Shown: positions 21,681 to 64,000 of the stretch, in pieces
Position numbering within the stretch: position 1 is the stretch's first letter
Layout of the letters: each line of letters starts with the position of its first letter
DNA from: an uncultured Desulforhopalus sp.
GTDB taxonomy: Bacteria; Desulfobacterota; Desulfobulbia; Desulfobulbales; Desulfocapsaceae
DNA: 64,000 nucleotides
Assembly: GCA_963677465.1 (NCBI GenBank)
Contig: OY781976.1
Coordinates: forward strand, 5,247,678 to 5,311,677
Reading direction: 5' to 3'
Notes under the pieces: generated by a model
What the model was told of the DNA's origin: nothing
Database searches by the model: none
The model's input: only the letters and a program-made list of their open reading frames with translations
Translations under genes and position numbers: made by a program

Positions 21681-21682
21681 CC

Positions 21683-22150: not shown

Positions 22151-22429
22151 TTAATTGGCCTTTTTGATATACTCGGCAAGGGTTTCCAGCGATTGCAAAA
22201 CGTCCCTGCTGGTATTTTCGGAATCCATCCTTACACCATATTCTTTCTGAATAGTTACTGCAATTTCAAGGGCATCCAAAGAGTCGAGCCCAAGAACTGA
22301 GTCCGGGCCTATTAAGGGTTCATCACCTACCAAGGTATCCATTTCCACTTCTTCGACATTGCATATTTTACAAATTAGTTCCAACAGCTCTTGTTCTAAA
22401 GGTTCCATAAAAGATTCTACTATATCCAA
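22151..22429 (-). CDS. Acyl carrier protein
   Basis: About 90 aa and acidic, with the phosphopantetheine attachment motif LGLDSLDALE. The start is ambiguous: TTG at 22429 or ATG at 22408. Confidence 0.8.
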   Translation of the reverse strand: MDIVESFMEPLEQELLELICKICNVEEVEMDTLVGDEPLIGPDSVLGLDSLDALEIAVTIQKEYGVRMDSENTSRDVLQSLETLAEYIKKAN

Positions 22430-22452
22430 CTTGAGTTTTGACTAAGGTTATA

Positions 22453-23739
22453 TTATTTTCGTGCTTGAGCAAACTTCCAGGCAAGAAGAATTGTCAGGAG
22501 GAAAAACAGACTAAGCCGGCCAAGGTCATCTAAAATAGCCGAAAAAGAATATCCCCGCACCAAGATATCGAGAAAAGCGGTCAGCCCCCAATTGAGCGGA
22601 GATAGTATAGCAATATGCTGCATTGCCTGTGGCATGGCATAGACCGGAACCATCACTCCACCAAGAGCGGCGGAGATGACAACCGCCGTATAGCCAGTTG
22701 TCGATGCCTGCTCATAGGTATTGCAGGCCATGCCAAGTAAAATACCAAAGCCGCAGGCGGCCAGACTCGACAAGAACACGACCATCAACAATGCAACAGG
22801 GCTTAGCGAAACGCTAAAGGCTGGCAGTCCAAGAAAGGGGAACAAAAAGATGCCAATAAGCCCCACAAGCAAGAACTGGCAGAGGCAGACACCGACAAAA
22901 GCAACAACTTTACCTAGAAAAAGGGCAAGATGGGAAATTGGCAGAGATGCCAGACGAATCCAGATACCGGATTTTCGCTCCTGTAAAATTGCCCCTGCTA
23001 AGGGTATAGCCGTAAAGAACATCCCAAAAAGTGCCCAGGCAGGCACATTTTGCTGAACCGGATTATATGGTGGCGCCTCCGCCGAACCAAGACCTTTACG
23101 GTTCTCCGTTAAGACAAAAAGCGGCTGCTCAATAAGTCCAGACAGTCCGGCGATGGGCAGCGAGTCATGGGCAATAGCCAAATGAGCAATTAATTTGTGC
23201 AGCTCCTTATCCAGAGTCTCAGCTTTTACCCCCAGACCAACTGCTTCCAAAGCCATCTGCAACTGAGCCGTGAGACCGGAACGAAGCCCCGGCATAATGC
23301 CCGGATCAAAAAAGACCTCCACCGCAAGACTCACCGCCTCCGTTTCTTTTCCATCCTGACTGCTCTTTTGAAATAAGCGTGCTGCTGTCTCGTGCATTTT
23401 ATCCGAGGAGCCCGCCGGTATGATAAGGCCAACCTGATAGTCCCCGTCAGCGACTGCTGCTTGAACATCTGCACTTTTTCTCAGCTCTTTATCCCAGGTA
23501 ACTATCTCAATATGCTCTTTTGTCAGCCTTTGCCGCAAAGAACGACCAAGAGCCCCATTATCTAAATCAAGGAGCAAGAGTTGGGTGTCTTTTTGCCCAG
23601 TGAGCTCCATGACATTTTCCTGAACAAGAGTAATCACAATAACCAGCAGAGCCGGCATGAGAAAGAGAACCAGCAAGCCTGCACGGTCGCGTTTCAGCAA
23701 GAGAAGTTCTTTGCCAGCGGCTGTGATTATTTTGAACAT
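22453..23739 (-). CDS. ABC-2 type transporter permease
   Basis: 428 aa with an N-terminal TM, a large extracytoplasmic loop and then 5 C-terminal TM helices. This topology is typical of ABC-2 exporters. It lies downstream of an ABC ATPase. Confidence 0.75.
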   Translation of the reverse strand: MFKIITAAGKELLLLKRDRAGLLVLFLMPALLVIVITLVQENVMELTGQKDTQLLLLDLDNGALGRSLRQRLTKEHIEIVTWDKELRKSADVQAAVADGDYQVGLIIPAGSSDKMHETAARLFQKSSQDGKETEAVSLAVEVFFDPGIMPGLRSGLTAQLQMALEAVGLGVKAETLDKELHKLIAHLAIAHDSLPIAGLSGLIEQPLFVLTENRKGLGSAEAPPYNPVQQNVPAWALFGMFFTAIPLAGAILQERKSGIWIRLASLPISHLALFLGKVVAFVGVCLCQFLLVGLIGIFLFPFLGLPAFSVSLSPVALLMVVFLSSLAACGFGILLGMACNTYEQASTTGYTAVVISAALGGVMVPVYAMPQAMQHIAILSPLNWGLTAFLDILVRGYSFSAILDDLGRLSLFFLLTILLAWKFAQARK

Positions 23740-23779
23740 AGCAGACGAATGAATAACCAGAAGAGTTGAAAAACACTCA

Positions 23780-24562
23780 TTATGTATCGCGAAGTTGCTT
23801 ACCAGTCAGGTGCAGAAAAAGATCTTCCAGATTACTGCTGCCACTTTGCAACAAGAGCTCATCGGGAGTACCTTGCTCAATAATTTTACCGCCGTCAATA
23901 ATTCCCACCCGACTGCAAAGTTCCTGAGCGTCTTCCATATAATGAGTTGTGTAGAGGATTGTCGTTCCCTTTTGGTTAAGTTCCATTAATTGTTTATGAA
24001 TTAAGTGCCTGGACTGAGTGTCAATCCCCACAGTCGGTTCATCAAGAAAGAGAATTTGCGGAAGATGCAGCAGGCCTGTTGCCAGATTGAGGCGCCGTTT
24101 CATTCCACCGGAATAGGTCGACACCAGGCGTGTTGCCTGCTCGGTCAGTCTGGCGAAATCAAGACATTGATCAATCCGATTCTTCAGTTTCACCCCGCTA
24201 AAGCCGTAGAGCCTGCCGAAAAACTGGAGATTTTCCAAGGCAGTCAAATTTTCATACAAGGCAATATCCTGGGGAACCAATCCTAAAAGCTGCCGGATTT
24301 CGTTCGATTGCCTCTGAAAATCCATCCCCATAACCGAGACAGTACCGCTGTCCGGTGGCATAAAGCCGCTAAAGACCGAAACGGCAGTGGTTTTGCCGGC
24401 ACCGTTTGCGCCAAGCAAGCCGAAAAACTCACCCTTTTCGACGTGCAAACTAAACCCGTTCAAGGCAGGACTTTCGCTATTTTTATACCGCTTGACAAGA
24501 GACCGGGCCACAAGAGCATATGCCTGATCTTCTTTCTGTTCGCAAAACTTACTGGCTGTCAT
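23780..24562 (-). CDS. ABC transporter ATP-binding protein (ABC-2 exporter type)
   Basis: Walker A GANGAGKTT, signature YSGGMKRRL, Walker B ILFLDEPTVGID. Start set at the ATG that overlaps the upstream stop (ATGA). The track ORF extends to 24622. Confidence 0.85.
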   Translation of the reverse strand: MTASKFCEQKEDQAYALVARSLVKRYKNSESPALNGFSLHVEKGEFFGLLGANGAGKTTAVSVFSGFMPPDSGTVSVMGMDFQRQSNEIRQLLGLVPQDIALYENLTALENLQFFGRLYGFSGVKLKNRIDQCLDFARLTEQATRLVSTYSGGMKRRLNLATGLLHLPQILFLDEPTVGIDTQSRHLIHKQLMELNQKGTTILYTTHYMEDAQELCSRVGIIDGGKIIEQGTPDELLLQSGSSNLEDLFLHLTGKQLRDT

Positions 24563-25566
24563 GATTGTGTTTTCAGCCATTGTTCCAGTTGCCGAAAGAA
24601 CTTTTCTTCCAATGCTCCACACTCACGGATCTGCACGGCCATAGCCTTATAGCTGTCGCCTGGCTGAGCACGTTTTTTACATATCCGGGCGGCCATCACG
24701 GCAAACTTTCGCCAGCGATCTCCCGCCGCGGTCAGTAGGGTTGCATAGTCAAGTAAGGAGGGCTCCTGAAGTTCTTCGGCACTTTCTTGCAAAAAAGCGG
24801 CATACATAAAACGAAAGCCACCACCCCCCGTACCAATTTCTTCCTGCATGCGAACAACATGGCCCAAATGCAGATCAGCACTTTCTTCGCCCAGTCGTTC
24901 AGGCCATTTTTCGAGTCGGTTGGCCATAAATCGTATGCCCTTAACGCCAATTAATGGGAAAGGACTGGCAAGCATATTTTTACAGACAGAACGAATACCC
25001 TGGACGATAAGCGGTCTACGCTGCAGTTGTGCGGGCACTTGCGTCAGGTAGTACATTTTCCCTTTGGGAGCAAGAACTCCAGAGGCAAATCGGGCTCGAG
25101 CCAAATCTGCAGATGGACAACGAACAGGTCCAGGAAAAACCGGATCGCTTATGAGATATTCATCACCCTCTTTGCCATAGACCACGAGGTTATGGGCATT
25201 GAAGTGGAAGCGTAAGGCCTTTGGAAAATAAGGTAACCAGTAGACTCCTGTCTGTAATCCCACCGGAATCGACTTGGCAAGGGCAGCATCCAATTCAGCC
25301 ATTGCCTGATCTTTGTCCCGGAACTTTTTCTGGTACATGGTGATGCCGGGAATTTTACCGATCCGCTTTAAGATATGGCCGGCGGCAGAGCGGTAGGTAA
25401 CCAGGGGCAGGCCGTGAATCCGGATAAAGGGCAGATAACCAAAGAATAGGCCAGCACCAATGCCAAAGGCCATGGCCTCTGAAAAAGCGATCCCTTTGTG
25501 ACTGAGCAGGTTGGCGGCGACACCACTCTCGCAGTGGGCAGATTGCAGGTGAGGAAAATCAGTCAA
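24559..25566 (-). CDS. BtrH-like N-terminal domain / DUF4872 protein (papain-like fold, putative ACP-dependent acyl transferase or peptidase)
   Basis: N-terminus HLQSAHCESGVAANLLSHKGIAFSEAMAFGIGAGLFFGYLPF, with the candidate catalytic Cys in the HCES context. It matches my memory of the BtrH_N family. Confidence 0.55.
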   Translation of the reverse strand: MTDFPHLQSAHCESGVAANLLSHKGIAFSEAMAFGIGAGLFFGYLPFIRIHGLPLVTYRSAAGHILKRIGKIPGITMYQKKFRDKDQAMAELDAALAKSIPVGLQTGVYWLPYFPKALRFHFNAHNLVVYGKEGDEYLISDPVFPGPVRCPSADLARARFASGVLAPKGKMYYLTQVPAQLQRRPLIVQGIRSVCKNMLASPFPLIGVKGIRFMANRLEKWPERLGEESADLHLGHVVRMQEEIGTGGGGFRFMYAAFLQESAEELQEPSLLDYATLLTAAGDRWRKFAVMAARICKKRAQPGDSYKAMAVQIRECGALEEKFFRQLEQWLKTQS

Positions 25567-26002
25567 CAGGATTACCCTCGTGCTCTTGTTGATTATAGAC
25601 AGGTGGCTTGAGCTTGCCCTGGATCAGGTCATCTAAAGAAACCTTAAAGACCTCACCATACTTTTTTAAGGTGCCGGCGCCTAAGCGACTAAAAAAGAAA
25701 GGAATCATGTGCAGACGAACAAAGCAGCGAGATTGCCTGGTGTAACTGGCAAGAAGGCCGGTGTCCATCTGGTTGGCGGTCATATAGTAATGCAGGCAAC
25801 TTACCCGACCTGCGGCGACTTTCTCTTTTGATACCGCAATCTGTTTCTCTATCTCCTGCCAGGCCTGGTGGTTGACGACATCCACGGGATGCCACATAGC
25901 ACTCTGAACAAGTTCCTGATTGCCTTCTTGGTTTGCCACATAACTGATTATTTTTACCCCATCAGTTATATCGCTTTTTGCAGATTGGTTTGGCTGGTCC
26001 AT
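25559..26002 (-). CDS. Hypothetical protein (147 aa)
   Basis: Coding-like ORF in an operon position, overlapping the downstream BtrH-like start by 8 nt. I recognised no family. Confidence 0.45.
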   Translation of the reverse strand: MDQPNQSAKSDITDGVKIISYVANQEGNQELVQSAMWHPVDVVNHQAWQEIEKQIAVSKEKVAAGRVSCLHYYMTANQMDTGLLASYTRQSRCFVRLHMIPFFFSRLGAGTLKKYGEVFKVSLDDLIQGKLKPPVYNQQEHEGNPVD

Positions 26003-26008: not shown

Positions 26009-26644
26009 TTAAAAAGTCACACCTATCAACAACTTGACTGAATTAAGAGGTTCATTGGGTTCTTCGGTGCCGGCATTGGAGATATGGTGATATCGCAACT
26101 CAAAGAGCAGTTGATGAACTTGGTCCCATGGGTATTTAATGCCTGCGCCAAATTGATAATTGCCATTTAATTTGGCGCCCATGCCCGAGATATCGGCAAA
26201 GCTGTACACCGGCCCCCCACCACCAAAAACATAAGGCTGCCATTGCTGGCCGGCGGTAAAGGTGTAGGCTGCCAAAAAATTCACGCCAACCATAGTAGCG
26301 ACATCAGGACTGACGACAAGAGAGACAGGAAGTTCCAGGAAAAGAGAATGATAACCTCGGTACCACCCGGATCCTATATTATCAAAGATACGATGATTAT
26401 ACCGGGGAATAAAATCTAAAGTTTGAACTCGCTGGGTGGTCTCTCCCCAACCGGGAAAGCTTTGGCCATAGCCACTGATAAAGGCCCAATTATCTTTTGA
26501 GGTATCAAGGCCACTCGCGTCGGCAGAATCAACCAGGAAGGGCGACAAGACAAAAAAGCTTATCAGCAGAAAGAGACAGACTGCGCCATCATGCCTTTCG
26601 ATTCGATTTTTTTTCGCTTGATTGTGCTTGTTGTAAGAAGCCAT
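26009..26644 (-). CDS. Acyloxyacyl hydrolase / PagL-like outer-membrane lipid deacylase
   Basis: Signal peptide, beta-barrel-like alternating pattern, conserved LRYHHISNAG (His-x-Ser-Asn catalytic region of the PagL-like family) and a C-terminal aromatic residue. Confidence 0.65.
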   Translation of the reverse strand: MASYNKHNQAKKNRIERHDGAVCLFLLISFFVLSPFLVDSADASGLDTSKDNWAFISGYGQSFPGWGETTQRVQTLDFIPRYNHRIFDNIGSGWYRGYHSLFLELPVSLVVSPDVATMVGVNFLAAYTFTAGQQWQPYVFGGGGPVYSFADISGMGAKLNGNYQFGAGIKYPWDQVHQLLFELRYHHISNAGTEEPNEPLNSVKLLIGVTF

Positions 26645-26753
26645 TCATTATCTGATAAAGAGTTTTTTCACCTACATCCTCAAAATAAAGCCTTTGGTGA
26701 ATCAATCTTTATACCGCAAACGAGCTGGGATTTGCAAGAAGATTGAGGTTTTG

Positions 26754-27557
26754 CTATAAAAACTGCATTACTGGCCGCTCAATCAGCTGTTCCAGCGGAA
26801 CAGTGGTATATTTCTTCTGCAATGTGCCAAACAGGAGATCGAGTTCTTTTTGCCAATCGTCCAACTGGTTTTTCTGATTTGGCGGAAGGTCGTGGAGCAT
26901 TATTATATTGCCAGGTTGGAGACGTTTGAGGATTTTTTCGGCGAGCTTATGGATATTCCGGTTGCCTCGATCAAAGGCACGGCAGCTGTAATTTACCGTT
27001 ATGAGGCCTTCTTCTGCCAGCACTCTACTGAGACGAGAACCGGTGATCCCCGCAGGCGGCCTGAAAACGAGAGGTTTCACGCCATATTGTTTTAAGATTT
27101 CCTGATTCTTATGGATATCCTTCTGTATTCTTTTTTGGCTTCGGAACATGAGAAAATAATCATGATGCCAGGAATGATTGCCTATGGTATGGCCTCCATC
27201 AAGAATCCTTTGGATCAATTCAGGATGTTGAGCCGCCTTTTCACCTATCATAAAAAATGTCGCATTTAGGTTGTGACGTGCCAGTAAACCCAGCAGAACT
27301 GGCGTAGACAGAGGTGATGGACCGTCATCAAAGGTAAGGGCAATCGCCTCACTTCCTGCTTGGCCACGACTGATGACCGGCAGGAAAAAGCCAAATTCCG
27401 GCAAAAATGGTGCTGCAAAGCAGAGGATAAGGAAAACAATCAGCGGCAAGGCTGCCAGCAAAGGAGCAACACAAAAGAGAACAATCGCCAACAATAGCGC
27501 CAGAATGCCGGTTTTAGCAGCCAAAGACAAGGGTATCTTATTATTGTTATAGAGCAA
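26754..27557 (-). CDS. Membrane-anchored polysaccharide deacetylase (NodB homology domain)
   Basis: Two N-terminal TM helices, then NodB motifs LTFDDGP and GNHSWHH. Overlaps the end of the MMPL gene by 11 nt. Confidence 0.8.
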   Translation of the reverse strand: MLYNNNKIPLSLAAKTGILALLLAIVLFCVAPLLAALPLIVFLILCFAAPFLPEFGFFLPVISRGQAGSEAIALTFDDGPSPLSTPVLLGLLARHNLNATFFMIGEKAAQHPELIQRILDGGHTIGNHSWHHDYFLMFRSQKRIQKDIHKNQEILKQYGVKPLVFRPPAGITGSRLSRVLAEEGLITVNYSCRAFDRGNRNIHKLAEKILKRLQPGNIIMLHDLPPNQKNQLDDWQKELDLLFGTLQKKYTTVPLEQLIERPVMQFL

Positions 27558-30500
27558 TGGCCGTCTCTTTCTTCGCCCGACAGACCATCCAGACCAACTC
27601 CGGATTAACAGCCGAGACTTCGTTTACGGTGATTTCAAAACCCGCTTCTTTCATCAATTCCACTATATTTTCTGCGGTACGATAGTAGACAGGCCGGCCA
27701 GATAATTTTATGCGGCTATTCTCCAACCGCCAGGACCATGACGGCCGACCTGTCGGCAGCAGCGTAAACCTTGTCACCAGAAGACCTTTATCGCCAAGAG
27801 CCTGAAAACTTCTTTTGCATACAGCAGCAACAGTCGCATCGTCGAGATAGTGCAGCATATCCAAAAGTAAAACGATATCCGCCGGGCGGGAAACAACGGG
27901 CATCTCCGGGGCCCAGCCAACGGTTACCTCTCCCCGGTCAGCCACGGCCAGGGCCGCCACTCTCACCCTCTCGGGATCGGGGTCGATACCAAAAATTTCC
28001 GCGTCACGATACTGTTCCAGACACCAACAGGCCGGCACCCCAAAACCACAGCCAATGTCTATAATGGTTGTAATATTTTCATGTCCGGCTAGCATTCGGG
28101 GCAGATCCTTAAACATCGTATCATACTGTAACTTAAAGCGGGCAAACATCCTTGGATACGGCTCCAGGGTCTGGTAGCGATCACGAATGCGCAGGATGCT
28201 ATTTTTGTTGCTCGAACGGCCAACTTTACGATTTTGCCGAGCCACATAATTATTCAACAGCGGTGGCAGCAACAGAAAGGTACCAAGCAGAGAATAACCA
28301 ATACCAAGTAGAGACGTAATACCAATGCTTCTAAGTAAAGAATGTTCGGCAACAGCGAGCACCCCAAAACCGATCAGGGTAGAGGCCCCGGCCATAAAAA
28401 CAGCGACCCGCACGAGAACATAGGAAGGATGGTTGACATCACGGTATCGCTGATGGGCCCGCACACAAAAAATGGAGTAATCAATGCCCATACCAAGGAT
28501 GACAACCGACAACATAAGCGCCGGTATATCAAGAGGATGGTTGATAAGCTTCAAGGTTCCCAGAGTGCAGATATAGGCAAAAAAAGGTGGCAGCAAGGTG
28601 AGCAGCGTCAGCTGCAGGTTCAGATAGAAAAAAAATGTCAGTAAAACTATGCTGGCAGCAATGATCACCAGCATGGTGGTGAAGGTTGAAAACAAAATAT
28701 CAGCCAGCCTTTTTGTGAAAAAGCTGGCATCAAATATTTTGCCCAGCTTACCATAGCGACTCAAAAAATCAGCGCCGTCATAATATTTGCTCGGTTGAAT
28801 GGTAATAAACTGTATCAGTCCGGAGTTGCTTTCTTTTTCTGAGATACCCAGCAGGCCATAATATTTGGCCGGAATTGGTTGGGACTGTAGGGTAAATGAG
28901 GGGTCAAGCAGAGAAAGAAAATGATTAAAGGCATCAGGCATAAAGCCGAGCTCTGTTCCCGCCGCCCGCAAATCCTCTGCAAGCTGCTTCCCTCTGTGAT
29001 TACTCCAAAACTCATGCCAGGCGGCCAAGTTTTTCCTGGCTCTCTGCTCGCCTGGAAAAATCATCGACGGCACAAAGGCAGCGGTTATGTCCTCATCCTG
29101 GATGTCTTGTTCGATCTTGCCGAGAAGCTGGTCGTTGTCCGTTTGAATTCCGGCAATGCCGGCGATCCTATCGGCCGAATTCATCAGGAAAACCCGTTCG
29201 CCGATATTTCCCCAAACTTCTGTAAACAGTGCATCGGCGGCAAGAGTTTCCTCGCTCACGGTGTTCATGCTGCTAAGACTCACCTCAAATTGCGGTTTGG
29301 CAAAAATGAGCAGGACAACTGCCAGGAGAGCCGCAGCGCAGGCACCCGGCTTCCCGGTACTGTAGAGGATATTAACAAGGCCACGAAGGGGCAGGGCACG
29401 GCCACCGCCCGGCGGCATCACCGGAAAGATTCTCGGAAAAATTGTATGGACAAAGAGAAAAGAGAAGAAAATGCCAAGGGCGGTGAACTGACCCAGTTCA
29501 GCAAAAATCAAAAACCCGCTGGAGCTGAGAATCAAAAAGGCCCCGATGGAGGTAATGACAGCCATTAAACCGATGGCATAGACCTCATGGGCTGCTTCCT
29601 TGCCCTTGGTCTGATGATTTCGATCAAGAAACAGCAGGTAGGCAATACCATGATCCACCGTGATGGAGATAATCGCCCCACCAAAACCCAGCACCATAAT
29701 CGAGATGGATGAATGAAACAGGGAGTAGACAAAAAGGGCTGCACCCGTACCGGCAAGGGCAGGCACCAGGGATAACAGGCCAAGCAGGGGTCTGGGGAAG
29801 GCAAAAAGAAGGAGCAGGCCAATGCCCACAGTGGCCAGAATCAGGGCCAGTTGAACATCATGGCGGATTATAGTTTCGTTATCAAGAGCCGCCCGATAGG
29901 CCCCCACCGGCGTGAGTGTTACTTCGTGGCCTAACGAGGCGAATTTCTCACTGATTTCCCGGGTACTTTTGGCAATAAGCTCGGAAATCTTCCGGGCAGA
30001 CGCGGTATCGGTACCTGTTGCCCGTGGTCTGGCAACAACCAACAGATGATGACTGTCAGCCGAAAGCAGACTTCCCCGGTAAAATCTGGAGTTCAGCGAA
30101 GGCGCCAGTGGAGCCATCTTGGCAAGGATCAGATCTTTCAAACCAAGGGGATCCAGATCAATAAATTCCGCCTGCCCTATGCCGTCCATGCTACTCAGGT
30201 CCTGATACAGCTTTTGCAGACGTTTATGAATCTGCTCTGAACCAAGCAGTGGCGCGACCTTTTGTTCCAATTCCTTTTTTGAAAACAGTATTGGCAGGTT
30301 TCTCGCCGCGTGAAAGGCCAGCTGTGGAATCAGTTCGCCGATTGCATCGGTACCAACCTGGGCAAACAGGCCACTCTCCTCCATTTTCTTTTCAAGGAGG
30401 GAACCAACCTCAACCAGAGTATCCGGATCATCACTCTCCAGCATAATGTCCACAGCAATTTGATCATGCACGGGATGATGTTCAAAAATATCAAGAGCAT

Positions 30501-34439: not shown

Positions 34440-34448
34440 ATTTGGTAT

Positions 34449-36705: not shown

Positions 36706-36712
36706 AATATTA

Positions 36713-39393: not shown

Positions 39394-39423
39394 TATTTGA
39401 ACGGACTTTAGAAGGAAACAAAG

Positions 39424-45190: not shown

Positions 45191-45208
45191 GAAGTGAGTC
45201 CTGCCAGG

Positions 45209-46157: not shown

Positions 46158-46374
46158 TGTATTGTTCCTCCAGTTTTTTTAACAAAACGACCTAAATTAC
46201 TTCAAGTCTTTGCAGGTGTATAGATTTATTTTTCGGTGTAATGTGGGGCTGATGTGATCTACTTTTAGTCGCAGGGGCCTTGGCCGAGGAATCTTGCCTC
46301 CCGCTTATTTGTCCTTGCTGTTATACTGACAAAAAGAGAATTCAATCAAATCGAGCCAGGAGATTTTATACTTT

Positions 46375-51136: not shown

Positions 51137-51167
51137 AACGGAAATCTTCCTGTCCAAGAATGCAAGA

Positions 51168-57530: not shown

Positions 57531-57535
57531 GTCAG

Positions 57536-57970
57536 TTATGCCTGGAAGAGCTGTAAGGTGCTTATACAGATGAGTTTATTGTCCAAGTGCTGTTCGCAGG
57601 AGACTTCCCGAAGATTCTCAAAGTTATAACTGTTTTCGGCACTGGTGATTATTTCACTGCCAAAGGGCAGGAAGTTGATAAAAAATTCAGTCTTTTTAAT
57701 ACCCACCAGCCAACCCATCTGATCCGAATCCAGCCCCTTGGTTTGAATTCTGTCCAGGCCGTTGCAGACACCCGCGGTCTGGGCCGCCAGCTCAATGAGT
57801 ATCAAAGGATGCACTCCCTGCTGCTCGGCCATGGGCCAGGATTTGCCAACGCGGCTGCAGGTCAAAGCATGTTTGCTGTCAACCTCAAGCACCTTCTCAA
57901 GCAACATCATATGGCCTCGATGCGGCAGCAAATCCTCCAGGGTCAGGTCGGAAATTGTGATAGTATTCAT
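57536..57970 (-). CDS. Hot-dog dehydratase of the aryl-polyene (ApeP/ApeI-like) type
   Basis: LLPHRGHMMLLEKVLEVD motif, typical of FabA/Z-like dehydratases in APE-type clusters. Start set at the internal ATG (MNTITISD). The track ORF extends to 58030. Confidence 0.6.
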   Translation of the reverse strand: MNTITISDLTLEDLLPHRGHMMLLEKVLEVDSKHALTCSRVGKSWPMAEQQGVHPLILIELAAQTAGVCNGLDRIQTKGLDSDQMGWLVGIKKTEFFINFLPFGSEIITSAENSYNFENLREVSCEQHLDNKLICISTLQLFQA

Positions 57971-58176
57971 TATTTTGTAGCCAAAAAGATACCTTAATAT
58001 TGTTGCAACCGCCACCAAATTAGATGACAATTTCCTGTTGGCATTCTACCAGATTATTGGCATTATGGTATTTTCTGAATGTATGTGAGATGCCATTTAT
58101 CATAAAACCGAGCCTGACGTGTTGCCACGCTACTGACGGTTTTATTAATACAACCGAACTATAAAAGCAAAAAATT

Positions 58177-58443
58177 ATGAGTGCACTGATAGAAGAGCTC
58201 AAGGTTAAACTTATAGAAATCCTCAATCTGGTGGACGTAAAACCTGAGGATTTTGATGAAAACAGTCAACTGGTGGGTGGTGATCTGGGCATCGACTCCA
58301 TCGATGTTTTGGAGATGGTGGTCATGGTTGAAAAAGATTATGGCATCATTATCAATAATCAGGAGGTCGGCCAGAAAATATTTGCCTCACTCACCAATCT
58401 GGCTGAGTACATCCAGGAAAATTCCGCCAAAACAATATCTTGA
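58177..58443 (+). CDS. Acyl carrier protein
   Basis: 88 aa and acidic, with attachment motif LGIDSIDVLEM. 4-nt overlap with the downstream KS gene. Confidence 0.85.
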   Translation: MSALIEELKVKLIEILNLVDVKPEDFDENSQLVGGDLGIDSIDVLEMVVMVEKDYGIIINNQEVGQKIFASLTNLAEYIQENSAKTIS

Positions 58444-60611
58444 ACGACCAAGCAGTTTATATTAGTGGCAGCGGGATAATCAGCTCGCTGGGCGTAGGAC
58501 TTGCCGCCACAGAAAAAACACTGCGCGAGAACCGTTCGGCAATACGACCTCTGGAGCTGTTTCCTCTGCTCCAGGGTTCACCGTTGCCGGTTGGCGCCGT
58601 GCCAGGCATGGATCAATCCCCGTCTCTTCTGCCCAGAACGCACCAGTTGGCAGGTATCGCCGCAAGCCAGGCCATGGAAGGGTCGCCCTCCCCGCCTGAT
58701 GCTATAATTATTGGCACTACCACCGGCGGCATTCTCACCACCGAGCAGCTGCTCAGGAGCGGTGATCAGCACAAAGAGCACTACCAGCATCACGGTTTAC
58801 ACACTGTTGCCAGCCATCTCGCCCAAGAATTCCATTGCACCGGTCCGATTGTGGTTGTCTCCACGGCCTGTTCTTCCGGCGCTTTGGCCATGGCTCTGGC
58901 CTTGAAAATGCTTCGCGGCGGTGCGGTAAAATCGGTTCTGGCCGGTGGCGTGGACTCGCTCTGCCGTCTGACCTACTTTGGTTTTCATTCCCTGCAACTG
59001 GTTGACCAGAGCGGTTGTAAACCACTTGATCAAAACCGGCAGGGCATGGCCGTGGCTGAGGGTGCGGGCATGCTCCTGCTCAGCACCGAAAAACCTGCGA
59101 ACTGTTCTGCCGAGCTCCTTGGCGCCGGCATTTCCTGTGATGCCTACCATCCTGCGGCGCCGCACCCGGACGGTCAGGGCGCGTTCATGGCCATGCAAGG
59201 TGCTTTAGCCGATGCCGGCCTCAAACCAGAAGAGATCAGCTATATCAATCTTCACGGCACCGGAACTCCCGATAATGATTTGGCAGAGTCCAAAGCCGTG
59301 CGTCGACTGTTTACCGCTCTGCCGCCGCTTTCATCGATCAAAGGGGCCTCCGGCCATAGTTTGGCCGCCGCCGGAGCCATAGAAGCGGTGGTGGCCACGA
59401 TGGTCATATCCCACGGCCTGATGCCCGCCAATACCGGTTTGTTGAACGTCGATCCCGCACTCGGCCTGAAGCCGCTGACCAGTCCGCTCGACCTTCCGGC
59501 AAAAGCGGTTCTCTCCAATTCCTTTGGTTTTGGTGGCAACAACGGTTCTTTGGTCATCGGCGCAGTTGATACCTTTCAGCCAACGCCTTGCCGAAAACCT
59601 GTTTCGGGGCTCGCCATACATGGCTATTCCTGTCTGACCGGGGCAGGCGACATCCTGGAAACCATTGATTGCATCCGCGCTGGCCAAGCCGCTTCCGGCA
59701 TGGCAGGACTCGATACAATTTCCAAAGAGTTGCCGCCTCGGTTGATCCGACGGCTCAAGCGACTGCCGCGCATGACCCTTGCTTTAGCGTCAAAGGCCTT
59801 TGCCGACTCGTCTCTCGCTGATCAGAAACCAACTGCAGTTTTTATGGGCACCAGTTGGGGAGCCCTTTCAGAAACCCACGATTTTCTGAGCCGCCTGGAA
59901 GAATCCAGGGAACAATTTCCAAGTCCCACCGATTTTGTCGGCTCCGTCCATAACGGACCGGCCAGTCAGGTGGCCATCCTTTTTGGGGCAACCGGCCCGA
60001 ATATTACCACCAGCGGCGGAGATTATTCTTTTGAGCAGGCGCTCTTTACCGCCGAACTGATGCTCAACAATTCGACGGAATCTGCTTTTATCCTTGGCGC
60101 TGACGAAGGCCATGAAAAGTTTTCCCCGCTTCTTGACCCTTCGATTACACCGGGAACTGCCCTTGCTGACGGCGGTGGTGGTCTTTGCGTCAGTAGAAAT
60201 AACAAAGATGCCAAATGCATCATTGCCATGCCCTTCTATCAAAGCAGCAAGGCAGAAGGTGTGGTTGCCAAACTAGTAAAGTCACTGCCGAGCCTTAAAA
60301 AGGCTGATAGTTATGCACTGATCCTGGCAGGTATCCCTGCAGCCATGAGCAAGAAAGGAGCTGAACAGCTTACTGAGTTTACTGAACTAACAAACCTGAC
60401 GACACCCCTTGTCCAGTACCGTAAAATCACCGGAGAATTTGGTTCAGCTTCTGCGGTGGCAACGGCGCTTGCCGCCTCGTTCTTTGCGTCGGGAATTGTC
60501 CCCGGCGCTCTGGCAGGGGGCAAGGATATTGACATAACCAGTAAAACAAGCAAAATCCTTATCTTAAGCCTGGGGCAATACCTTACCGCCATGGAACTTT
60601 CCAGACCATGA
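58440..60611 (+). CDS. Ketosynthase fused to a chain-length-factor-like KS-fold domain (KS-CLF fusion)
   Basis: The N-terminal ~375 aa have Cys-His-His (STACSSGALAM, LHGTGTPDND, SGHSLAAAG, NSFGFGGNN). The C-terminal ~350 aa are KS-fold-like, with GTSWGALSE where the active Cys would lie. I see no catalytic Cys or His motifs there. Confidence 0.8.
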   Translation: MNDQAVYISGSGIISSLGVGLAATEKTLRENRSAIRPLELFPLLQGSPLPVGAVPGMDQSPSLLPRTHQLAGIAASQAMEGSPSPPDAIIIGTTTGGILTTEQLLRSGDQHKEHYQHHGLHTVASHLAQEFHCTGPIVVVSTACSSGALAMALALKMLRGGAVKSVLAGGVDSLCRLTYFGFHSLQLVDQSGCKPLDQNRQGMAVAEGAGMLLLSTEKPANCSAELLGAGISCDAYHPAAPHPDGQGAFMAMQGALADAGLKPEEISYINLHGTGTPDNDLAESKAVRRLFTALPPLSSIKGASGHSLAAAGAIEAVVATMVISHGLMPANTGLLNVDPALGLKPLTSPLDLPAKAVLSNSFGFGGNNGSLVIGAVDTFQPTPCRKPVSGLAIHGYSCLTGAGDILETIDCIRAGQAASGMAGLDTISKELPPRLIRRLKRLPRMTLALASKAFADSSLADQKPTAVFMGTSWGALSETHDFLSRLEESREQFPSPTDFVGSVHNGPASQVAILFGATGPNITTSGGDYSFEQALFTAELMLNNSTESAFILGADEGHEKFSPLLDPSITPGTALADGGGGLCVSRNNKDAKCIIAMPFYQSSKAEGVVAKLVKSLPSLKKADSYALILAGIPAAMSKKGAEQLTEFTELTNLTTPLVQYRKITGEFGSASAVATALAASFFASGIVPGALAGGKDIDITSKTSKILILSLGQYLTAMELSRP

Positions 60612-61957
60612 GAATACTGCTGGTATCACCCAATACCCTCATCGCCCCTTACCCGGTATATCCTCTAGGGCTTGACTATGTTGCTGCTTCCATCTCTCCG
60701 GAGCACGAGGTGCGGATTGCCGACCTCAATGCTCTGTCGCTCCCAGAGCTCGATGATATAGTCGTTAATTTTTCTCCAGAGATCGTAGGACTGTCCTGCC
60801 GCAATATTGACAACATGGATGCTGCGGGTTCTCAAAGTTTTATCCACGATTACGCAACAGTCGTCTCCCGTCTGAGAGCAAAATCAAAGGCCACAATTGT
60901 CTGCGGCGGCAGTGCCTTCACCATCATGCCAAAACAGATTCTTGCCTCCCTTGGCGCTGACTACGGCATTATCGGCGAAGGGGAACGATTCGGCATGGTT
61001 GTCGAGGCTATAAGAGACGGACGGGACCCTGCCCAACTAACCGGAGTGATTTCTGCATCCTCAACCCACGAAACAACCCCAGCTCCCTGGTCGGGCCCAA
61101 TAGTCCGCAACTTCCAGGACCAGGCCGACCATAATTGTTTCTATCTCAAAACCGGCGGAATGCTTAATTTGCAGAGTAAACGAGGCTGCAGCTTTCGTTG
61201 CATCTATTGTTCTTACCCACATATCGAAGGCCGAAACCACCGCCTGGTTGAGCCGGATGAAGTGGCCAGAACAGCCCTTCAGCTACAGGATGCCGGAGCC
61301 AAATATTTCTTTATCACTGATTCTGCGTTTAATTCCGATATTCAGCACAGTCTGGCCGTGGCCAAATCGTTCAAAGCCGCCGGAGTTTCCATCCCCTGGG
61401 GGAGTTTTTTTGCCCCTACCAGACTCCCGGTTGATTATTTTTCGACTCTGGCAAGTGCCGGTCTGACTCATGTGGAATTCGGCACCGAATCCCTGGCCAA
61501 TTCCGTCCTGAAAACCTATCGTAAACCTTTTGTTGTCAGCGATGTTTTTGCCGCCCATCAGCAGGCACTCGACGCCGGACTGCATGTGGCCCATTATTTT
61601 CTTATGGGTGGCCCTGGAGAATCGGCTGCAACCGTCACAGAAAGCCTCAATAACATCGAAATGCTTAAAAAGACGGTCTTCTTTTTCTTCATCGGCATCA
61701 GGATCTATCCGCAAACCGGACTTTACGACATCGCCATGAAGGAAGGCAAGATAACCGCCAACACCAACCTGCTGGAACCGGTCTTCTACCAAGCCGACGA
61801 CATTGTCCGTCAAACCATTGAGTCACTTGTTAAAGAAAGGGTTGGCAAGCGCAGCAACTGCCTCATCGGCTCCGGTAATCCCGAAGAAATCGAAGCGGTC
61901 GGAAAAATGTATGCCCGAGGTTATACCGGGCCGTTATGGGAACATCTTATCCGTTGA
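60608..61957 (+). CDS. B12-binding-domain (class B-like) radical SAM protein
   Basis: N-terminal Rossmann-like segment (MRILLVSPN...IVGLSCRN...IVCGGSAFT), then KRGCSFRCIYCS. 4-nt overlap with the KS-CLF gene. Confidence 0.8.
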   Translation: MRILLVSPNTLIAPYPVYPLGLDYVAASISPEHEVRIADLNALSLPELDDIVVNFSPEIVGLSCRNIDNMDAAGSQSFIHDYATVVSRLRAKSKATIVCGGSAFTIMPKQILASLGADYGIIGEGERFGMVVEAIRDGRDPAQLTGVISASSTHETTPAPWSGPIVRNFQDQADHNCFYLKTGGMLNLQSKRGCSFRCIYCSYPHIEGRNHRLVEPDEVARTALQLQDAGAKYFFITDSAFNSDIQHSLAVAKSFKAAGVSIPWGSFFAPTRLPVDYFSTLASAGLTHVEFGTESLANSVLKTYRKPFVVSDVFAAHQQALDAGLHVAHYFLMGGPGESAATVTESLNNIEMLKKTVFFFFIGIRIYPQTGLYDIAMKEGKITANTNLLEPVFYQADDIVRQTIESLVKERVGKRSNCLIGSGNPEEIEAVGKMYARGYTGPLWEHLIR

Positions 61958-62048
61958 TGGCTAAGTAAAAACTCTTCACCTGCTTCGTTGTTGCGCTTTT
62001 ATTACCCGTTTTAAATAGACACTTTCACCCAAGCCCAATGAACGAATT

Positions 62049-63536
62049 ATGACAGATTCTTCATCCATATCGCAAAAAGTGCTGATTATCGGGGCTGGTA
62101 TCGGTGGTCTCAGTACGGCAATAATTTTAGCCCGCCTTGGCTTTGACGTCACTGTTTTTGAAAAAAATTGCCAGCCGGGCGGAGTAACGCGGAGCTATAC
62201 CCGCAACGGCATTGAGTGCGCTGTGGGCGTGCACTATCTGGGATCTCTCGACAAGAGGCAGATTCTCCGGACGTTCTTTGATTATCTGGGGGTTACAGAG
62301 GCCATTCCGGTGACAAGGATGGGGCAAGATGGGATAATCGACAGATACATTTTCGACTCCTCCACCCGCCACCAGTCAACCTTTGATATGCCCGAAGGAC
62401 TTGACGCCTACGCAGAAAACCTCGTGAAGGCCTTTCCTCTTGAGCAGGAAAAAATAGCCAAACTCATGGCCCCGATACATAAAGCAGCCAAACAACTGCA
62501 CGGGCTGGAGTTTTTATATGCAGGAGATGATGGTTTTTCTCTTTCTGAGCAATTCGAACCACTGGGTAAAATCCTCACCGAACTCCAATGCTCACCAGAG
62601 CTGCAAAATGTGCTGTCCATACCTTCCTGTTGGATCGGTGTGCCCTTGCATGACTGTCCCGCCTATTATCATAATATGGCCCTCGCCTCCTATGTTTCTT
62701 CTTCGTGGCGGCTTGACCGTAATGGCGCGGAGATGGCAGACGCTTTTGCGGCGCGGCTAAAGGCGTTGGGCGGGAAAATTATTACCGGGGCGGAAATCAG
62801 CCGAATTAACGTCGAGTCGCGTATAGTCCAGGGAGTGCAACTGCAATCCGGCGAAAACCTGGCCGCTGCAACCGTCATCGGCGCGGTGCACCCGAAAGTT
62901 GTTTTGCAGATGCTGGCGCAAAGAGATGTGAAGCCTTCCTACCGGCAACGGATCAGCAGTTTGCAGGATACCCATGGCATTTTTGCGGTTCATGTCCAGA
63001 TTGATGCCGAGAGCCACCCGGAAATCCCTTACAATATTTTTAAAATCGACACCGGGAAAACAGGCAAAACGCCGGATCTCAAATATTATCAGATACTCAA
63101 AACTGAAAAAAAAGGCCTTAACCTGCTCTCAATCCTCACCTCGGGAAAAGACGAACTGTGGGCGCCCTGGGTGAATACCAACAGTGAGCGACGTGGCAAA
63201 AGATATTCTGATTTAAAAGAACAACATGCCTCGGAATTGATTATGGAGGCAGAACAAATGTTTGGCCCCTTAAGGGGAGCAAAAATCCTCGACGCCTACA
63301 CACCTTTGACGATCCGGGATTGGGTCAACAGTCCTGGTGGCAGCGCCTATGGGGTACTGCGGTCATCCAGACAGCTGCTGGCCACCGCCCTGCTCAATCG
63401 CACAGCGGTAAAAGGCTTATATCTGGCCGGACAAAACGTCACGGCTCCTGGAATCATCGGCACCATCATGGGCTCGTTCAGTACCGTCAAGTTGATTCTC
63501 GGTGCTGATATGTTTAAAACAAAAATCCAGTTATGA
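62049..63536 (+). CDS. Phytoene desaturase (CrtI/CrtD)-family FAD-dependent oxidoreductase
   Basis: N-terminal dinucleotide motif VLIIGAGIGGLSTAIILARLGFDVTVFEKN. The ~495-aa length and C-terminal GLYLAGQNV...PG motif are typical of CrtI-like enzymes. Confidence 0.75.
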   Translation: MTDSSSISQKVLIIGAGIGGLSTAIILARLGFDVTVFEKNCQPGGVTRSYTRNGIECAVGVHYLGSLDKRQILRTFFDYLGVTEAIPVTRMGQDGIIDRYIFDSSTRHQSTFDMPEGLDAYAENLVKAFPLEQEKIAKLMAPIHKAAKQLHGLEFLYAGDDGFSLSEQFEPLGKILTELQCSPELQNVLSIPSCWIGVPLHDCPAYYHNMALASYVSSSWRLDRNGAEMADAFAARLKALGGKIITGAEISRINVESRIVQGVQLQSGENLAAATVIGAVHPKVVLQMLAQRDVKPSYRQRISSLQDTHGIFAVHVQIDAESHPEIPYNIFKIDTGKTGKTPDLKYYQILKTEKKGLNLLSILTSGKDELWAPWVNTNSERRGKRYSDLKEQHASELIMEAEQMFGPLRGAKILDAYTPLTIRDWVNSPGGSAYGVLRSSRQLLATALLNRTAVKGLYLAGQNVTAPGIIGTIMGSFSTVKLILGADMFKTKIQL

Positions 63537-63554
63537 CTGTTGATTTAACAGGAG

Positions 63555-64000
63555 GTGACCACCATTCGAATTGCCCTGTTTCTCATTTGCACCCTGTTTT
63601 TTCTTAAATTTTCCCGGCGGGCTTTAAGCAACTCGAGGACCCACGGTTTTTACCGTTTTTTTGTCTTTGAAGGGATTTTACTTTTAATTTTACTGAACTA
63701 TCCCCACTGGTTCAGGGAACCATTTTCACCACTGCATCTTTTGTCCTGGTCCCTGTTAGTCACCTCGATTTTCTTTATCGTCAATTCTCTCATGATGCTG
63801 AAAAAGAGTGGCGGACATGCTGAACGACAAGAAATGCCGGAGAACCTTTCTTTTGAAAATACTGTCCATGTGGTGGACGTGGGCCTCTACCGTTTTATTC
63901 GACACCCCATGTATAGTTCTCTGCTTTTTCTTGCATGGGGCGCTTTCTTTAAAAATATTACGCCATTAAATAGTGTTCTGGTTGTCTCGGTGACTGGCTT
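63555..64000 (+). CDS. ICMT/PEMT-like membrane methyltransferase (partial; runs off the right edge)
   Basis: This ORF is my own translation and is not in the track. The frame is open from 63549 to the window end. It is polytopic and hydrophobic, with VVDVGLYRFIRHPMYSSLLF (the RHPxY motif of isoprenylcysteine carboxyl / phospholipid methyltransferase families). The start is uncertain; GTG at 63555 is the only candidate near the frame opening. Confidence 0.55.
   Translation, partial: MTTIRIALFLICTLFFLKFSRRALSNSRTHGFYRFFVFEGILLLILLNYPHWFREPFSPLHLLSWSLLVTSIFFIVNSLMMLKKSGGHAERQEMPENLSFENTVHVVDVGLYRFIRHPMYSSLLFLAWGAFFKNITPLNSVLVVSVTG

Follow-up and report, generated by a model that had tools for sequence, protein, structure and literature searches.

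Aryl polyene (APE) clusters encode an enzyme set that makes polyenes without an enoyl reductase (ER), together with accessory genes that build and export an APE-GalNAc-phosphoglycerol lipid (PMC8358021; 10.1101/2020.12.19.423268). The arc cluster, like APE clusters, also holds genes for a deacetylase, an exporter, a LolA protein, an acyltransferase, a ligase and a glycosyltransferase (GT) (PMC3949708). Clusters with FabF paralogues and several radical S-adenosylmethionine (SAM) enzymes were described by Rattray et al. in 2009 from Desulfotalea psychrophila, Geobacter and Pelobacter, and no ladderanes were found in D. psychrophila (PMC2649909). Ladderanes are described as restricted to anammox Planctomycetota (PMC9902471), and a 2026 review lists their biosynthesis as unresolved (PMC13459092). 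In anammox bacteria, the so-called Cluster I has the gene order acyl carrier protein (ACP), FabZ, FabF2, FabFmut, PDH-like protein and B12-binding radical SAM enzyme (10.64898/2026.05.19.726425). AntiSMASH calls of 'ladderane' or 'aryl polyene' in Desulfobacterota and other anaerobes come with no product (PMC9902471, PMC13635244). Here, we compare with these systems a biosynthetic cluster that begins at position 22,151 of a 64,000-nucleotide stretch (hereafter the window) of contig OY781976.1 from an uncultured Desulforhopalus sp. and runs to the window's end.

We consider it probable, albeit with appreciable room for doubt, that this cluster is one conserved unit of anaerobes that joins an APE/flexirubin-type lipid system to a core of radical SAM enzymes and ketosynthases (KS). 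Its gene families, its lack of an ER gene, the conserved co-localisation of its genes and their homology to APE, dialkylresorcinol (DAR) and anammox proteins are established by the comparisons below. The cluster family as such has been known bioinformatically since 2009; NCBIfam has an equivalog for it, and genome-mining tools flag it as a matter of routine. New are the division into an APE/flexirubin-like half, a core of radical SAM and KS genes, and additions confined to certain lineages; the finding that, as far as sequence comparison goes, the nearest characterised machinery is that of APE and DAR biosynthesis, not of anammox bacteria; the pairing of the Cluster I radical SAM enzyme with one particular window enzyme, B12rSAM_b; and a list of cultured carriers, i. 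e. Desulfogranum mediterraneum DSM 13871, Desulfobulbus rhabdoformis DSM 8777, Allochromatium palmeri DSM 15591 and, as a further candidate, Desulfofustis limnaeus. Anammox bacteria, for their part, double in about two weeks. Radical-SAM-rich clusters with type II fatty acid synthase (FASII)/APE-like genes occur in hundreds of anaerobe species, and the present one shares gene types with the only candidate ladderane genes.

Scanning for open reading frames (ORFs) from 22,151 to the window end gave 45 candidate genes. Ten of them are identical, residue for residue, to proteins already predicted on a 6,362,850-bp NCBI/ENA contig, so the gene calls are sound, although two ORFs at 47061 and 49238 are probably spurious. 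All 45 ORFs were scanned with Pfam and 30 of them with NCBIfam, and motifs were checked in addition. An earlier note on this DNA had listed four ACPs, four KS plus a chain length factor (CLF), a FabG, three dehydratases (DH), two thioesterases (TE), six radical SAM enzymes and a CrtI-like protein, an inventory that these searches confirm. Pfam likewise bore out its AMP ligase, Dak2/DegV protein, PlsC, DUF374 and LpxL-like acyltransferases, GT2, NodB, PagL and BtrH-like proteins; its export set (MMPL, ABC-2, LolA, lipoprotein) was recovered as well, as were three methyltransferase-type domains (the C-terminus of 27547-30630, the protein at 38722 and the PEMT/ICMT-like gene at the window end). 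One of the three dehydratases (38016) is FabA/ApeI-like, and the proposed GT25 has only a weak match over 34 residues. Some corrections were needed. A Peptidase_U32-family gene (39424-40617) had been missed in an otherwise near-complete list. The statement that nearly all genes serve lipid metabolism mostly holds, except that 47211-48952 is a HEC-01 defence pair and TE2 and DUF374 are doubtful members.

Chain assembly and its aryl polyene and dialkylresorcinol relatives

The four ACPs (22151, 37766, 45209 and 58177) each carry the serine in a D-S-x motif. By motif check, the Cys-His-His triad is complete in KS1, KS2, KS3 and the N-terminal half of the 58440-60611 protein, whose C-terminal half is CLF-like and triad-less, with Cys replaced by Asp and both His gone. 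In the PDB, the KS half matches 7f28_B (ApeO, 200 bits), 9s5h_B (197) and 6qsp_A (194), while the CLF half has only three matches, all of them CLF partners (9s5h_C, Iga12 6kxd_B and ApeC 6qsp_B); 7F28 and 6QSP have been identified as Ape proteins (PMC8358021). The top match of KS3 is 7f27_A (ApeR) with 316 bits, against at most 235 bits for FabB/FabF, and its 402 bits on NF006587 fall under the cutoff of 470. For the reductive steps, the FabG at 56775 passes NF004200 (285.5 bits, cutoff 273). The ApeI-like DH (38016) scores 31.1 bits on PF22818 (cutoff 28.5), with 3esi and 6qsr_A as best PDB matches; the ApeP-like DH (57536) is closest to 6qsr_B and reaches 24.4 bits on PF22817, under the cutoff of 27. 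TE1 (32698) belongs to the YbgC/FadM subfamily. The lipoprotein (55514-56188) has the lipobox LASC and no Pfam match, and its single-sequence AlphaFold2 (AF2) model was unusable (pLDDT 41).

The earlier note had recognised no ER and named the discovery of one as a test of its reading; none of the 45 ORFs matches FabI, FabK, FabV, FabL or MDR at E<=0.01. The short-chain dehydrogenase/reductase (SDR) at 56775 was considered for this role and rejected, as it passes the FabG equivalog model and FabI is absent among its top 25 matches. The AMP ligase finds its best family in 4-coumarate-CoA ligase, with only 92 bits against a cutoff of 335, and all its PDB matches are weak. In agreement with the note, which had seen no aryl-starter enzyme, Pfam scans of the 45 ORFs revealed no ammonia lyase and, in addition, no chorismatase family.

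When set beside the APE/APEL clusters of E. coli CFT073, Xenorhabdus doucetiae and Acinetobacter baumannii, the window resembles them in its KS and CLF, a second, ApeR-type KS, a FabG-type ketoreductase (KR) and a putative ApeI/ApeP-type dehydratase pair; like them, it has no ER. Both also encode several free ACPs along with a thioesterase, an AMP ligase, a methyltransferase, acyltransferases of the LpxL/PlsC type and a GT2, and likewise an RND/MMPL exporter (ApeM), a LolA-like protein (ApeL) and a lipoprotein. For four window proteins, the best-matching solved structure is that of an Ape protein, and with the KS-CLF, the second KS and the dehydratases matching Ape structures best, the APE resemblance seen in the earlier note stands. 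There are also differences. KS and CLF are fused in the window and separate in APE clusters; the window encodes six (perhaps seven) radical SAM enzymes, and its host is anaerobic; a FabF-like KS pair, a double hot-dog DH, a Fak-like fusion, U32, NodB, PagL and ABC-2 proteins are extra. Moreover, no starter-forming enzyme was recognised in the window, and ApeG and DUF3261 (ApeN) were not detected there.

A KS/CLF pair with KR and DH and no ER is also found in highly reducing type II PKSs, the ishigamide (Iga11/Iga12) and cispentacin (AmcF/AmcG) systems, with which the window proteins share the 6kxd matches and an AmcF match of 187 bits. The Iga, Amc and Jaw systems, however, yield Actinobacterial secondary metabolites and come without a lipid-anchor or export set. 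The jawsamycin enzyme Jaw5 provides a radical SAM precedent, as it acts on an enoyl-thioester during chain growth (PMC13459092); it is HemN-like, whereas the window enzymes are B12-binding, SPASM-type or members of a new small family. A further precedent is UfaD from Rhodobacter sphaeroides, a phytoene-desaturase-like enzyme that adds a conjugated double bond to a phospholipid-bound acyl chain (PMC7380195). By analogy, UfaD gives the 62049-63536 protein a plausible role, although UfaD needed O2 in vivo and the likeness is one of CrtI family. The CrtD and crtI_fam scores of this protein lie far under the cutoffs; its gene is present in 7 of 52 loci and at this position only in the window lineage and one further locus (L038).

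The left part of the cluster points to DAR systems. Its BtrH-like protein passes NF053550 'DarH' with 472.5 bits (cutoff 300), a name on which nothing usable was found in the literature, and the SDR at 56775 attains 282.8 bits on the flexirubin FlxB model, under the cutoff of 340. The gene order at 22151-26002 (ACP, ABC, ABC, BtrH, hypothetical) matches Azoarcus darC, darI, darF, darE and darD (PMC3949708). The window thus resembles the flexirubin clusters of Chitinophaga and Flavobacterium and the arcuflavin cluster of Azoarcus sp. BH72 in combining DarH/darE with an ABC permease, an ABC ATPase, an ACP and a hypothetical protein, and also in its polysaccharide deacetylase, exporter, LolA, acyltransferase, AMP ligase, GT and FlxB-like SDR. 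Unlike them, it encodes neither a tyrosine ammonia lyase (TAL) nor a XanB2-type chorismatase, and the described flexirubin and arc clusters are without the radical SAM-rich core (PMC3949708). A tblastn search of the window with the DarB-family protein of a close relative, Desulforhopalus sp. IMCC35007 (locus L003), returned nothing, and the general Pfam/NCBIfam scans gave no match named DarA, for which no specific search was made. Just past the equivalent of the window edge, L003 and L006 encode a StlD/DarB-family KS (535 bits, cutoff 450) that is absent at that place in L005 and L007. In L003 (13467-15938) and L006, the CrtI and PEMT-like genes are followed by this KS and by a seventh, HpnR-like B12-binding radical SAM enzyme, and the region past the edge may hence bring in DAR-type chemistry. 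Judged by sequence similarity, the strongest affinity of the cluster is to APE/flexirubin-type systems, not to the anammox genes.

The radical SAM core across genomes and the anammox comparison

All six radical SAM proteins of the window contain CxxxCxxC. Three are B12-binding (B12rSAM_a, B12rSAM_b and B12rSAM_c, at 41687, 54237 and 60608, respectively), one is of the SPASM type (40650) and two, rSAM1 and rSAM2, are small divergent paralogues with 30% mutual identity, CxxxCxxC at residues 35 and 42 and a C-terminal CC..C..C motif. The rSAM1 gene always adjoins that of rSAM2. Its product (35707-36705, 332 aa) gives 26 bits, under the Pfam gathering cutoff of 29.5, forms a 90%-identity cluster of 204 members and typically keeps 75-95% identity across Desulfobulbales, Smithella, Spirochaetota and Allochromatium. 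Similarly, B12rSAM_b retains 73-93% identity between Desulfobacterota orders. For KS-CLF, identity in these loci ranges over 43-76%, and for the double hot-dog DH over 31-68%, i. e. rSAM1 and B12rSAM_b are far more conserved than their neighbours, which argues for tight constraint on both enzymes. KS1 and KS2, about 39% identical to each other, are 62-89% conserved across orders. The AF2 model of rSAM1 (pLDDT 71) has CteB, anSME and viperin-like proteins as nearest folds (TM ~0.45). Since only generic SPASM/twitch and viperin-like folds, and no tetraether-synthase structure, were among the matches listed, the model yields no clue to the chemistry.

Desulfobulbales contain many homologues of B12rSAM_a with at least 73% identity. 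B12rSAM_c is a full-length TIGR04072 'rSAM_ladder_B12' equivalog (392.3 bits, cutoff 360) with 599 50%-identity representative clusters at E<=1e-30 and at least 571 relatives among species-representative genomes; 46 TIGR04072 relatives proved too diverse to be usefully aligned, and an alignment of 11 was workable. Two natural fusion proteins among the 50%-identity representatives of the B12rSAM_c family are informative here. One (P0151, 754 aa) combines an LpxL-like acyltransferase with a TIGR04072-like radical SAM domain, the other (P0158, 807 aa) a SPASM-type with a TIGR04072-like radical SAM domain, its SPASM part being 44% identical to the 40650-41681 protein. Together, these fusions tie three activities into one pathway.

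Synteny searches were anchored at three points, B12rSAM_c on the right, the MMPL-methyltransferase fusion (MMPL-MT) on the left and B12rSAM_a in the middle, and every fetched locus was compared with all 45 window proteins by tblastn; counts at the right anchor cover the 80 best genome loci of the at least 571 relatives of the TIGR04072 gene. The same genes co-occur, in varying order, in Desulfobulbales, Desulfobacterales, Smithella and other Syntrophales, Spirochaetota, Leptospirales metagenome-assembled genomes and Allochromatium palmeri. The usual order is Dak2-DegV, ligase, B12rSAM_b, lipoprotein, LolA, FabG and ApeP-like DH on one strand, then ACP4, KS-CLF, B12rSAM_c, ApeI-like DH, ACP2, rSAM2, rSAM1, KS2, KS1, TE1 and double hot-dog DH, and finally the small membrane protein, GT25 and MMPL-MT. 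Where at least 9 kb of downstream sequence was available, the DH, ACP2, rSAM2, rSAM1, KS2 and KS1 were present in 42-44 of 52 loci; where at least 8 kb lay upstream, ACP4 was found in 46 of 48, LolA in 32 of 48, and KS-CLF, ApeP, FabG and B12rSAM_b in 33-35 of 48.

For every window protein that was searched, the closest relatives are from Desulfobulbales. Two overlapping loci on one contig of Desulforhopalus sp. IMCC35007 (L096 and L003) together follow the window's gene order over about 37 kb, their proteins being roughly 60-95% identical to those of the window, and Desulforhopalus sp. 52FAK (L001) shows the window's own arrangement around B12rSAM_a. A 44-kb metagenome contig (L089) is collinear from B12rSAM_a through the core to NodB, PagL, the 147-aa hypothetical protein, BtrH, ABC, ABC-2 and ACP1, with the ABC pair syntenic; ACP1 lies beside ABC-2 genes both there and in L011. 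The 147-aa hypothetical gene adjoins the BtrH-like gene in five loci (L084, L085, L089, L091 and L050), the PagL/NodB pair is syntenic in L084-L095, the GT25-like gene is syntenic too, MMPL-MT adjoins the core in many loci, and the small 2-TM protein is kept at its junction in about 30. PlsC/KS3/ACP3 are syntenic in L001, L096, L046, L047 and L070, LpxL-like and GT2 in L001 and L096. The window lineage is rearranged relative to the common order, with the CrtI and PEMT-like genes placed after B12rSAM_c; as the genes nevertheless stay together, their linkage outlives rearrangement.

The purple sulfur gammaproteobacterium Allochromatium palmeri DSM 15591 (L041, NZ_WNKT01000030.1) carries a complete syntenic cluster from Dak2-DegV to MMPL-MT at 40-83% identity, which suggests horizontal transfer.

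Within the cluster, ten genes form a tightly conserved core, namely ACP, the TIGR04072 B12-binding radical SAM enzyme, ApeI-like DH, ACP, rSAM2, rSAM1, KS2, KS1, TE and double hot-dog DH. Smithella-type loci (L061, L074 and others) represent a minimal version that consists of a membrane protein, the ten-gene core and NodB, the latter located inside the core as in Spirochaetota loci; no KS-CLF, FabG/KR or LolA is found within 10 kb of the core. These loci suggest that the radical SAM/KS core is an autonomous unit.

For the anammox comparison, a locus with the published Cluster I order (L083) was fetched. The window holds all six gene types of Cluster I (KustE3603-3608: amxACP, amxFabZ, amxFabF2, amxFabFmut, PDH-like, B12-binding radical SAM). 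The ladderane likeness drawn in the earlier note therefore has a basis in these gene types and in TIGR04072, but it is a distant one, with 23-32% protein identity to L083 and a different order and operon structure. KS-CLF is about 30% identical to its anammox counterparts, the CrtI-like protein 23% to the PDH-like protein and the ApeI-like DH 32% to amxFabZ over 84 residues, while ACP4 and the ApeP-like DH have no tblastn match to L083 at 1e-3. The KS-CLF logic is common to both systems, and 9s5h_B and 9s5h_C are among the top PDB matches of the two halves; 9s5h_B, partly rebuilt from the alignment, has its closest homologues in Brocadia, Jettenia, Kuenenia and Scalindua and is hence an anammox FabF2-type protein. 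In anammox bacteria, however, KS and CLF are encoded separately, the dehydratase passes the canonical FabZ equivalog model (150 bits, cutoff 113) whereas those of the window are ApeI/ApeP-like, and no rSAM1/2 or KS1/2 core occurs within 10 kb of L083. The anammox radical SAM enzyme (L083 13989-15449) is closest to B12rSAM_b (31%, E 5e-45), which sits in another operon in the window. To B12rSAM_c, it is only 22% identical (E 3e-6), and with 88 bits on TIGR04072 (cutoff 360) it is not a member of that family. It would thus correspond to B12rSAM_b and not to the TIGR04072 protein. In the literature, this Cluster I enzyme is the prime candidate for cyclobutane formation.

The related clusters of sulfate reducers that the earlier note mentioned were published in 2009 from D. 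psychrophila, Geobacter and Pelobacter (PMC2649909). With the Rattray-type clusters, the window has in common FabF paralogues (one triad-less), several radical SAM enzymes, a PDH-like protein, an aryl-type CoA ligase, a GT, a membrane protein and a related host group (PMC2649909). As judged from the published description, D. psychrophila has two loci, whereas in the window everything lies in one block of at least 42 kb, which also carries the defence insert and a methyltransferase/U32 (MT/U32) pair. A literature search on the origin of the polyunsaturated hydrocarbons of D. psychrophila gave nothing usable.

Proposed pathway and competing accounts

From this gene content we infer a polyene chain, the substrates of the radical SAM enzymes, a lipid anchor and an outer-membrane destination. 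By analogy with APE biosynthesis, the AMP ligase would load a carboxylic-acid starter onto an ACP (PMC8358021; 10.1101/2020.12.19.423268). Then, KS-CLF, the ApeR-type KS, FabG and the ApeI/ApeP-type dehydratases could extend the chain with no enoyl reduction to give conjugated polyenoyl-ACPs. The TE, the Fak-like fusion, the PlsC-, LpxL- and BtrH/DarH-type transferases, GT2/GT25 and NodB may attach the chains to an anchor, conceivably of glycerophospho- or aminosugar (glycero-/glycolipid) type, before MMPL, the LolA-like protein, the lipoprotein and ABC-2 would carry the lipid to the outer membrane. The core might make a second, radically modified acyl chain or remodel the polyene, with C-methylation, cyclisation and C-C coupling as candidate O2-independent reactions. 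The CrtI-like enzyme could add or shift double bonds as UfaD does (PMC7380195). With a putative aryl-acid ligase and a DarH-type protein encoded, the product could include an aryl or resorcinol moiety.

Several points weigh against this account. No product is known for any family member, and the literature search found no characterised one for this cluster type, just as the earlier note had supposed. Housekeeping FabI, FabD and a phosphopantetheinyl transferase are needed in trans anyway, so the chain may become saturated. Without chorismatase, TAL and DarB, the window does not define the starter or any resorcinol part, and its ligase is only distantly related to all characterised ones. The CrtI-like gene is not constant, and the ApeP-like and FlxB scores fall just under the curated cutoffs. 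Finally, the APE-like half and the core are separable, as in Smithella, and may make separate products.

As a tentative extension of the joint-unit account, the ten-gene core might act on enoyl- or polyenoyl-ACP intermediates by radical chemistry that needs no O2 and in this way produce a new class of fatty acids (carbocyclic, cross-linked or poly-methylated), a proposal that we regard as more doubtful than the joint unit itself. If it were true, the core would be a non-anammox counterpart of ladderane chemistry with B12rSAM_b as a functional relative of the Cluster I enzyme, and a pathway that two decades of anammox study have failed to elucidate would become accessible through cultured carriers, for instance Allochromatium palmeri and Desulfogranum mediterraneum.

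Alternatively, the cluster could supply ordinary phospholipids with modified, largely saturated membrane fatty acids (methyl-branched, cyclised or tail-coupled), with FabI acting in trans. Here, the radical SAM enzymes would functionalise unactivated carbons, and the Fak-like kinase, PlsC and the LpxL-like protein would feed the acids into membrane lipids, much as ladderane acids enter anammox phospholipids. KS1 and KS2 are FabF-like with intact triads, the Smithella-type core has no KR and KS-CLF of its own, a FakA/FakB-like fusion and PlsC are encoded, and the B12-binding radical SAM enzymes resemble C-methylases such as HpnR and the cyclase BchE. In both D. psychrophila and Kuenenia, moreover, FabI is not part of the cluster (PMC2649909). 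We nonetheless hold this alternative to be unlikely, as enzymes of the KS-CLF, ApeR, ApeI and ApeP types have been shown to make polyenes (PMC8358021), and the dedicated set of MMPL, LolA, lipoprotein and ABC-2 suits a specialised outer-membrane lipid, not bulk phospholipid.

Less probable still is a conventional flexirubin/arcuflavin-type pigment, i. e. an aryl polyene acid esterified to a dialkylresorcinol, for which the radical SAM and U32 enzymes would merely take the place of O2-dependent ring hydroxylation, methylation and aromatisation in an anaerobe. The U32 family includes prephenate-dependent anaerobic hydroxylases, and the window's Cys-rich U32 protein has a weak match to one of them, TrhP. 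This fits with the DarH equivalog, the FlxB-like SDR (283 bits, cutoff 340), 4-coumarate-CoA ligase as best family of the ligase, the DarB-family KS just past the edge equivalent in two of four close relatives, and the dar-like gene order (PMC3949708). However, DarB is missing from the window and from most related loci, no TAL or chorismatase was found and DarA was not identified, and the most conserved genes (rSAM1/2, KS1/2, B12rSAM_b) are without counterpart in the described clusters (PMC3949708).

That an APE-like cluster, a fatty-acid-synthase-like operon, lipopolysaccharide/lipid A genes and an ABC exporter adjoin here by chance is very improbable. The HEC-01 pair, TE2, DUF374 and MT/U32 are, it is true, either unrelated genes or peculiar to the lineage, in D. 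psychrophila the genes are split between two loci (PMC2649909), and Smithella is without the APE-like half nearby. Yet the blocks remain linked through several rearrangements in at least three phyla, and the fusions link three activities; synteny, which the earlier note had named as a check on its blocks, therefore largely refutes chance adjacency, and this explanation was rejected. True ladderane (concatenated cyclobutane) lipids, finally, are the least credible product and were rejected despite the TIGR04072 'rSAM_ladder_B12' equivalog and the six Cluster I gene types, given the distant identity to anammox proteins, the different gene order, the non-anammox host relatives, an anammox radical SAM enzyme that itself falls outside TIGR04072, the lack of ladderanes in D. 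psychrophila with its homologous clusters (PMC2649909) and their description from anammox Planctomycetota only (PMC9902471).

If identified, the product of the joint unit could add to the envelope lipids of sulfate reducers and syntrophs a new one that might serve as a sediment biomarker, reveal how polyene lipids are tailored without oxygen, and show which reactions are catalysed by three radical SAM families that have not been studied and of which two are unusually conserved. The significance would be high if the core does ladderane-related radical carbocycle chemistry.

Gene inventory, lineage-specific genes and flanks

The coordinates of all features are collected in Table 1. In line with the earlier description, short gene overlaps and at least eight strand-defined transcription units follow from them.

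Table 1. Features of the cluster and its insert between position 22,151 and the window end.
Feature	Coordinates	Strand	Evidence
ACP1, position of darC	22151..22429	-	PP-binding
ABC-2 permease + ABC ATPase	22453..24622	-	PF12698/PF01061 and PF00005
BtrH-like protein, DarH equivalog	24559..25566	-	BtrH_N + DUF4872; NF053550
Conserved hypothetical (147 aa), position of darD	25559..26002	-	no family match
PagL-like outer-membrane protein + NodB-type deacetylase	26009..27557	-	PF09411, PF01522
MMPL/RND exporter with C-terminal SAM methyltransferase fusion (MMPL-MT, 1027 aa)	27547..30630	-	PF03176 + methyltransferase domains; HAE3/HpnN-like
GT25-like glycosyltransferase (weak)	30640..31377	-	PF01755, 35.5 bits over 34 residues
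Small 2-TM membrane protein (121 aa)	31488..31853	+	no family match; two hydrophobic segments
PKS-type double hot-dog dehydratase + 4HBT thioesterase TE1 (32698)	31874..33201	-	PS-DH/PKS_DH_N, 4HBT_2
KS1 + KS2 (starts 33174, 34449), FabF-like paralogues	33174..35699	-	full Cys-His-His triads
rSAM1 + rSAM2 (starts 35707, 36713), small paralogous radical SAM enzymes	35707..37765	-	CxxxCxxC
ACP2 + ApeI-like (FabA-fold) dehydratase (38016)	37766..38372	-	PP-binding; PF07977, PF22818
SAM methyltransferase (38722-39393) + Peptidase_U32-family protein (39424-40617)	38722..40617	+	
SPASM-type radical SAM enzyme (40650-41681) + BchE/HpnR-like B12rSAM_a (41687)	40650..43177	-	
PlsC-type acyltransferase, KS3 (ApeR-type, 43943-45190), ACP3 (45209)	43174..45466	-	
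TE2 (4HBT_2, 45747) + DUF374 acyltransferase; doubtful membership	45747..47064	- (TE2), + (DUF374)	Pfam
HEC-01 candidate defence pair (DUF4276 + AAA_21 ATPase), not part of the cluster	47211..48952	-	PADLOC
LpxL-like lipid acyltransferase + GT2 glycosyltransferase (ApeD/ApeJ-like roles)	49554..51256	-	
Dak2-FakA_M-DegV fusion (fatty-acid-kinase-like) + AMP-dependent ligase	51168..54271	-	
B12rSAM_b, B12-binding radical SAM enzyme	54237..55514	-	CxxxCxxC
Lipoprotein (55514-56188; lipobox LASC) + LolA-like carrier	55514..56775	-	
FabG-type ketoreductase (56775) + ApeP-like dehydratase (57536)	56775..58030	-	NF004200; PF22817
ACP4 + fused KS-CLF (58440-60611, 723 aa)	58177..60611	+	
B12rSAM_c, TIGR04072 'lipid biosynthesis B12-binding/radical SAM protein'	60608..61957	+	392.3 bits
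CrtI/phytoene-desaturase-like flavoenzyme	62049..63536	+	PF01593
PEMT/ICMT/DUF1295-like membrane protein, truncated by window end	63555..64000	+	

TE2, DUF374 and the MT/U32 pair are, by their distribution, lineage-specific additions. TE2 and DUF374 have no counterpart in any of the 96 fetched loci and are missing where L096 and L001 have the corresponding junction. The divergent MT/U32 pair occurs in 52FAK (L001) and L002 but not in IMCC35007 (L096) or L089; its methyltransferase has no PDB relative at 1e-6. On the strength of the weak TrhP match, one may speculate that the pair could perform an O2-independent hydroxylation and methylation.

The HEC-01 pair scores 285 and 686 bits in PADLOC, lies in a low-GC patch (0.42) and is bracketed by a 22-nt, 82% inverted repeat (47214-47235 / 49143-49164). 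The stretch at 45.5-49.5 kb corresponds to 230 bp in IMCC35007 and to unrelated genes in 52FAK, and because its content differs in these relatives the junction is a variable insertion hot spot. A promoter/terminator scan of 45-50 kb found no more sites than in shuffled sequence.

On the left, the genes at 1-22,111 are unrelated (kinase, helicase, peptidase, ABC importer, GGDEF protein, copper chaperones), and the boundary of the cluster there is therefore real. Judging from the relatives, the right boundary probably lies beyond the window, about 3 kb past its edge. The truncated gene at 63555 has a full-length, 182-aa orthologue in L003 that is 70% identical and matches PEMT, DUF1295 and ICMT.

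Directly flanking the cluster, at 20985-22111, are genes for SCO1/SenC and PCuAC copper chaperones, which are typically tied to the assembly of haem-copper oxidases. Such chaperones contrast with the sulfate-reducing Desulfobulbales that are the closest relatives of the host. Further upstream, at 3043-6974, a gene for a pRiA4b ORF3-like/UPF0149/SEC-C protein is followed by one for a PIF1-like helicase with HRDC and HTH_40 domains, and this pair may be mobile-element or defence-related.

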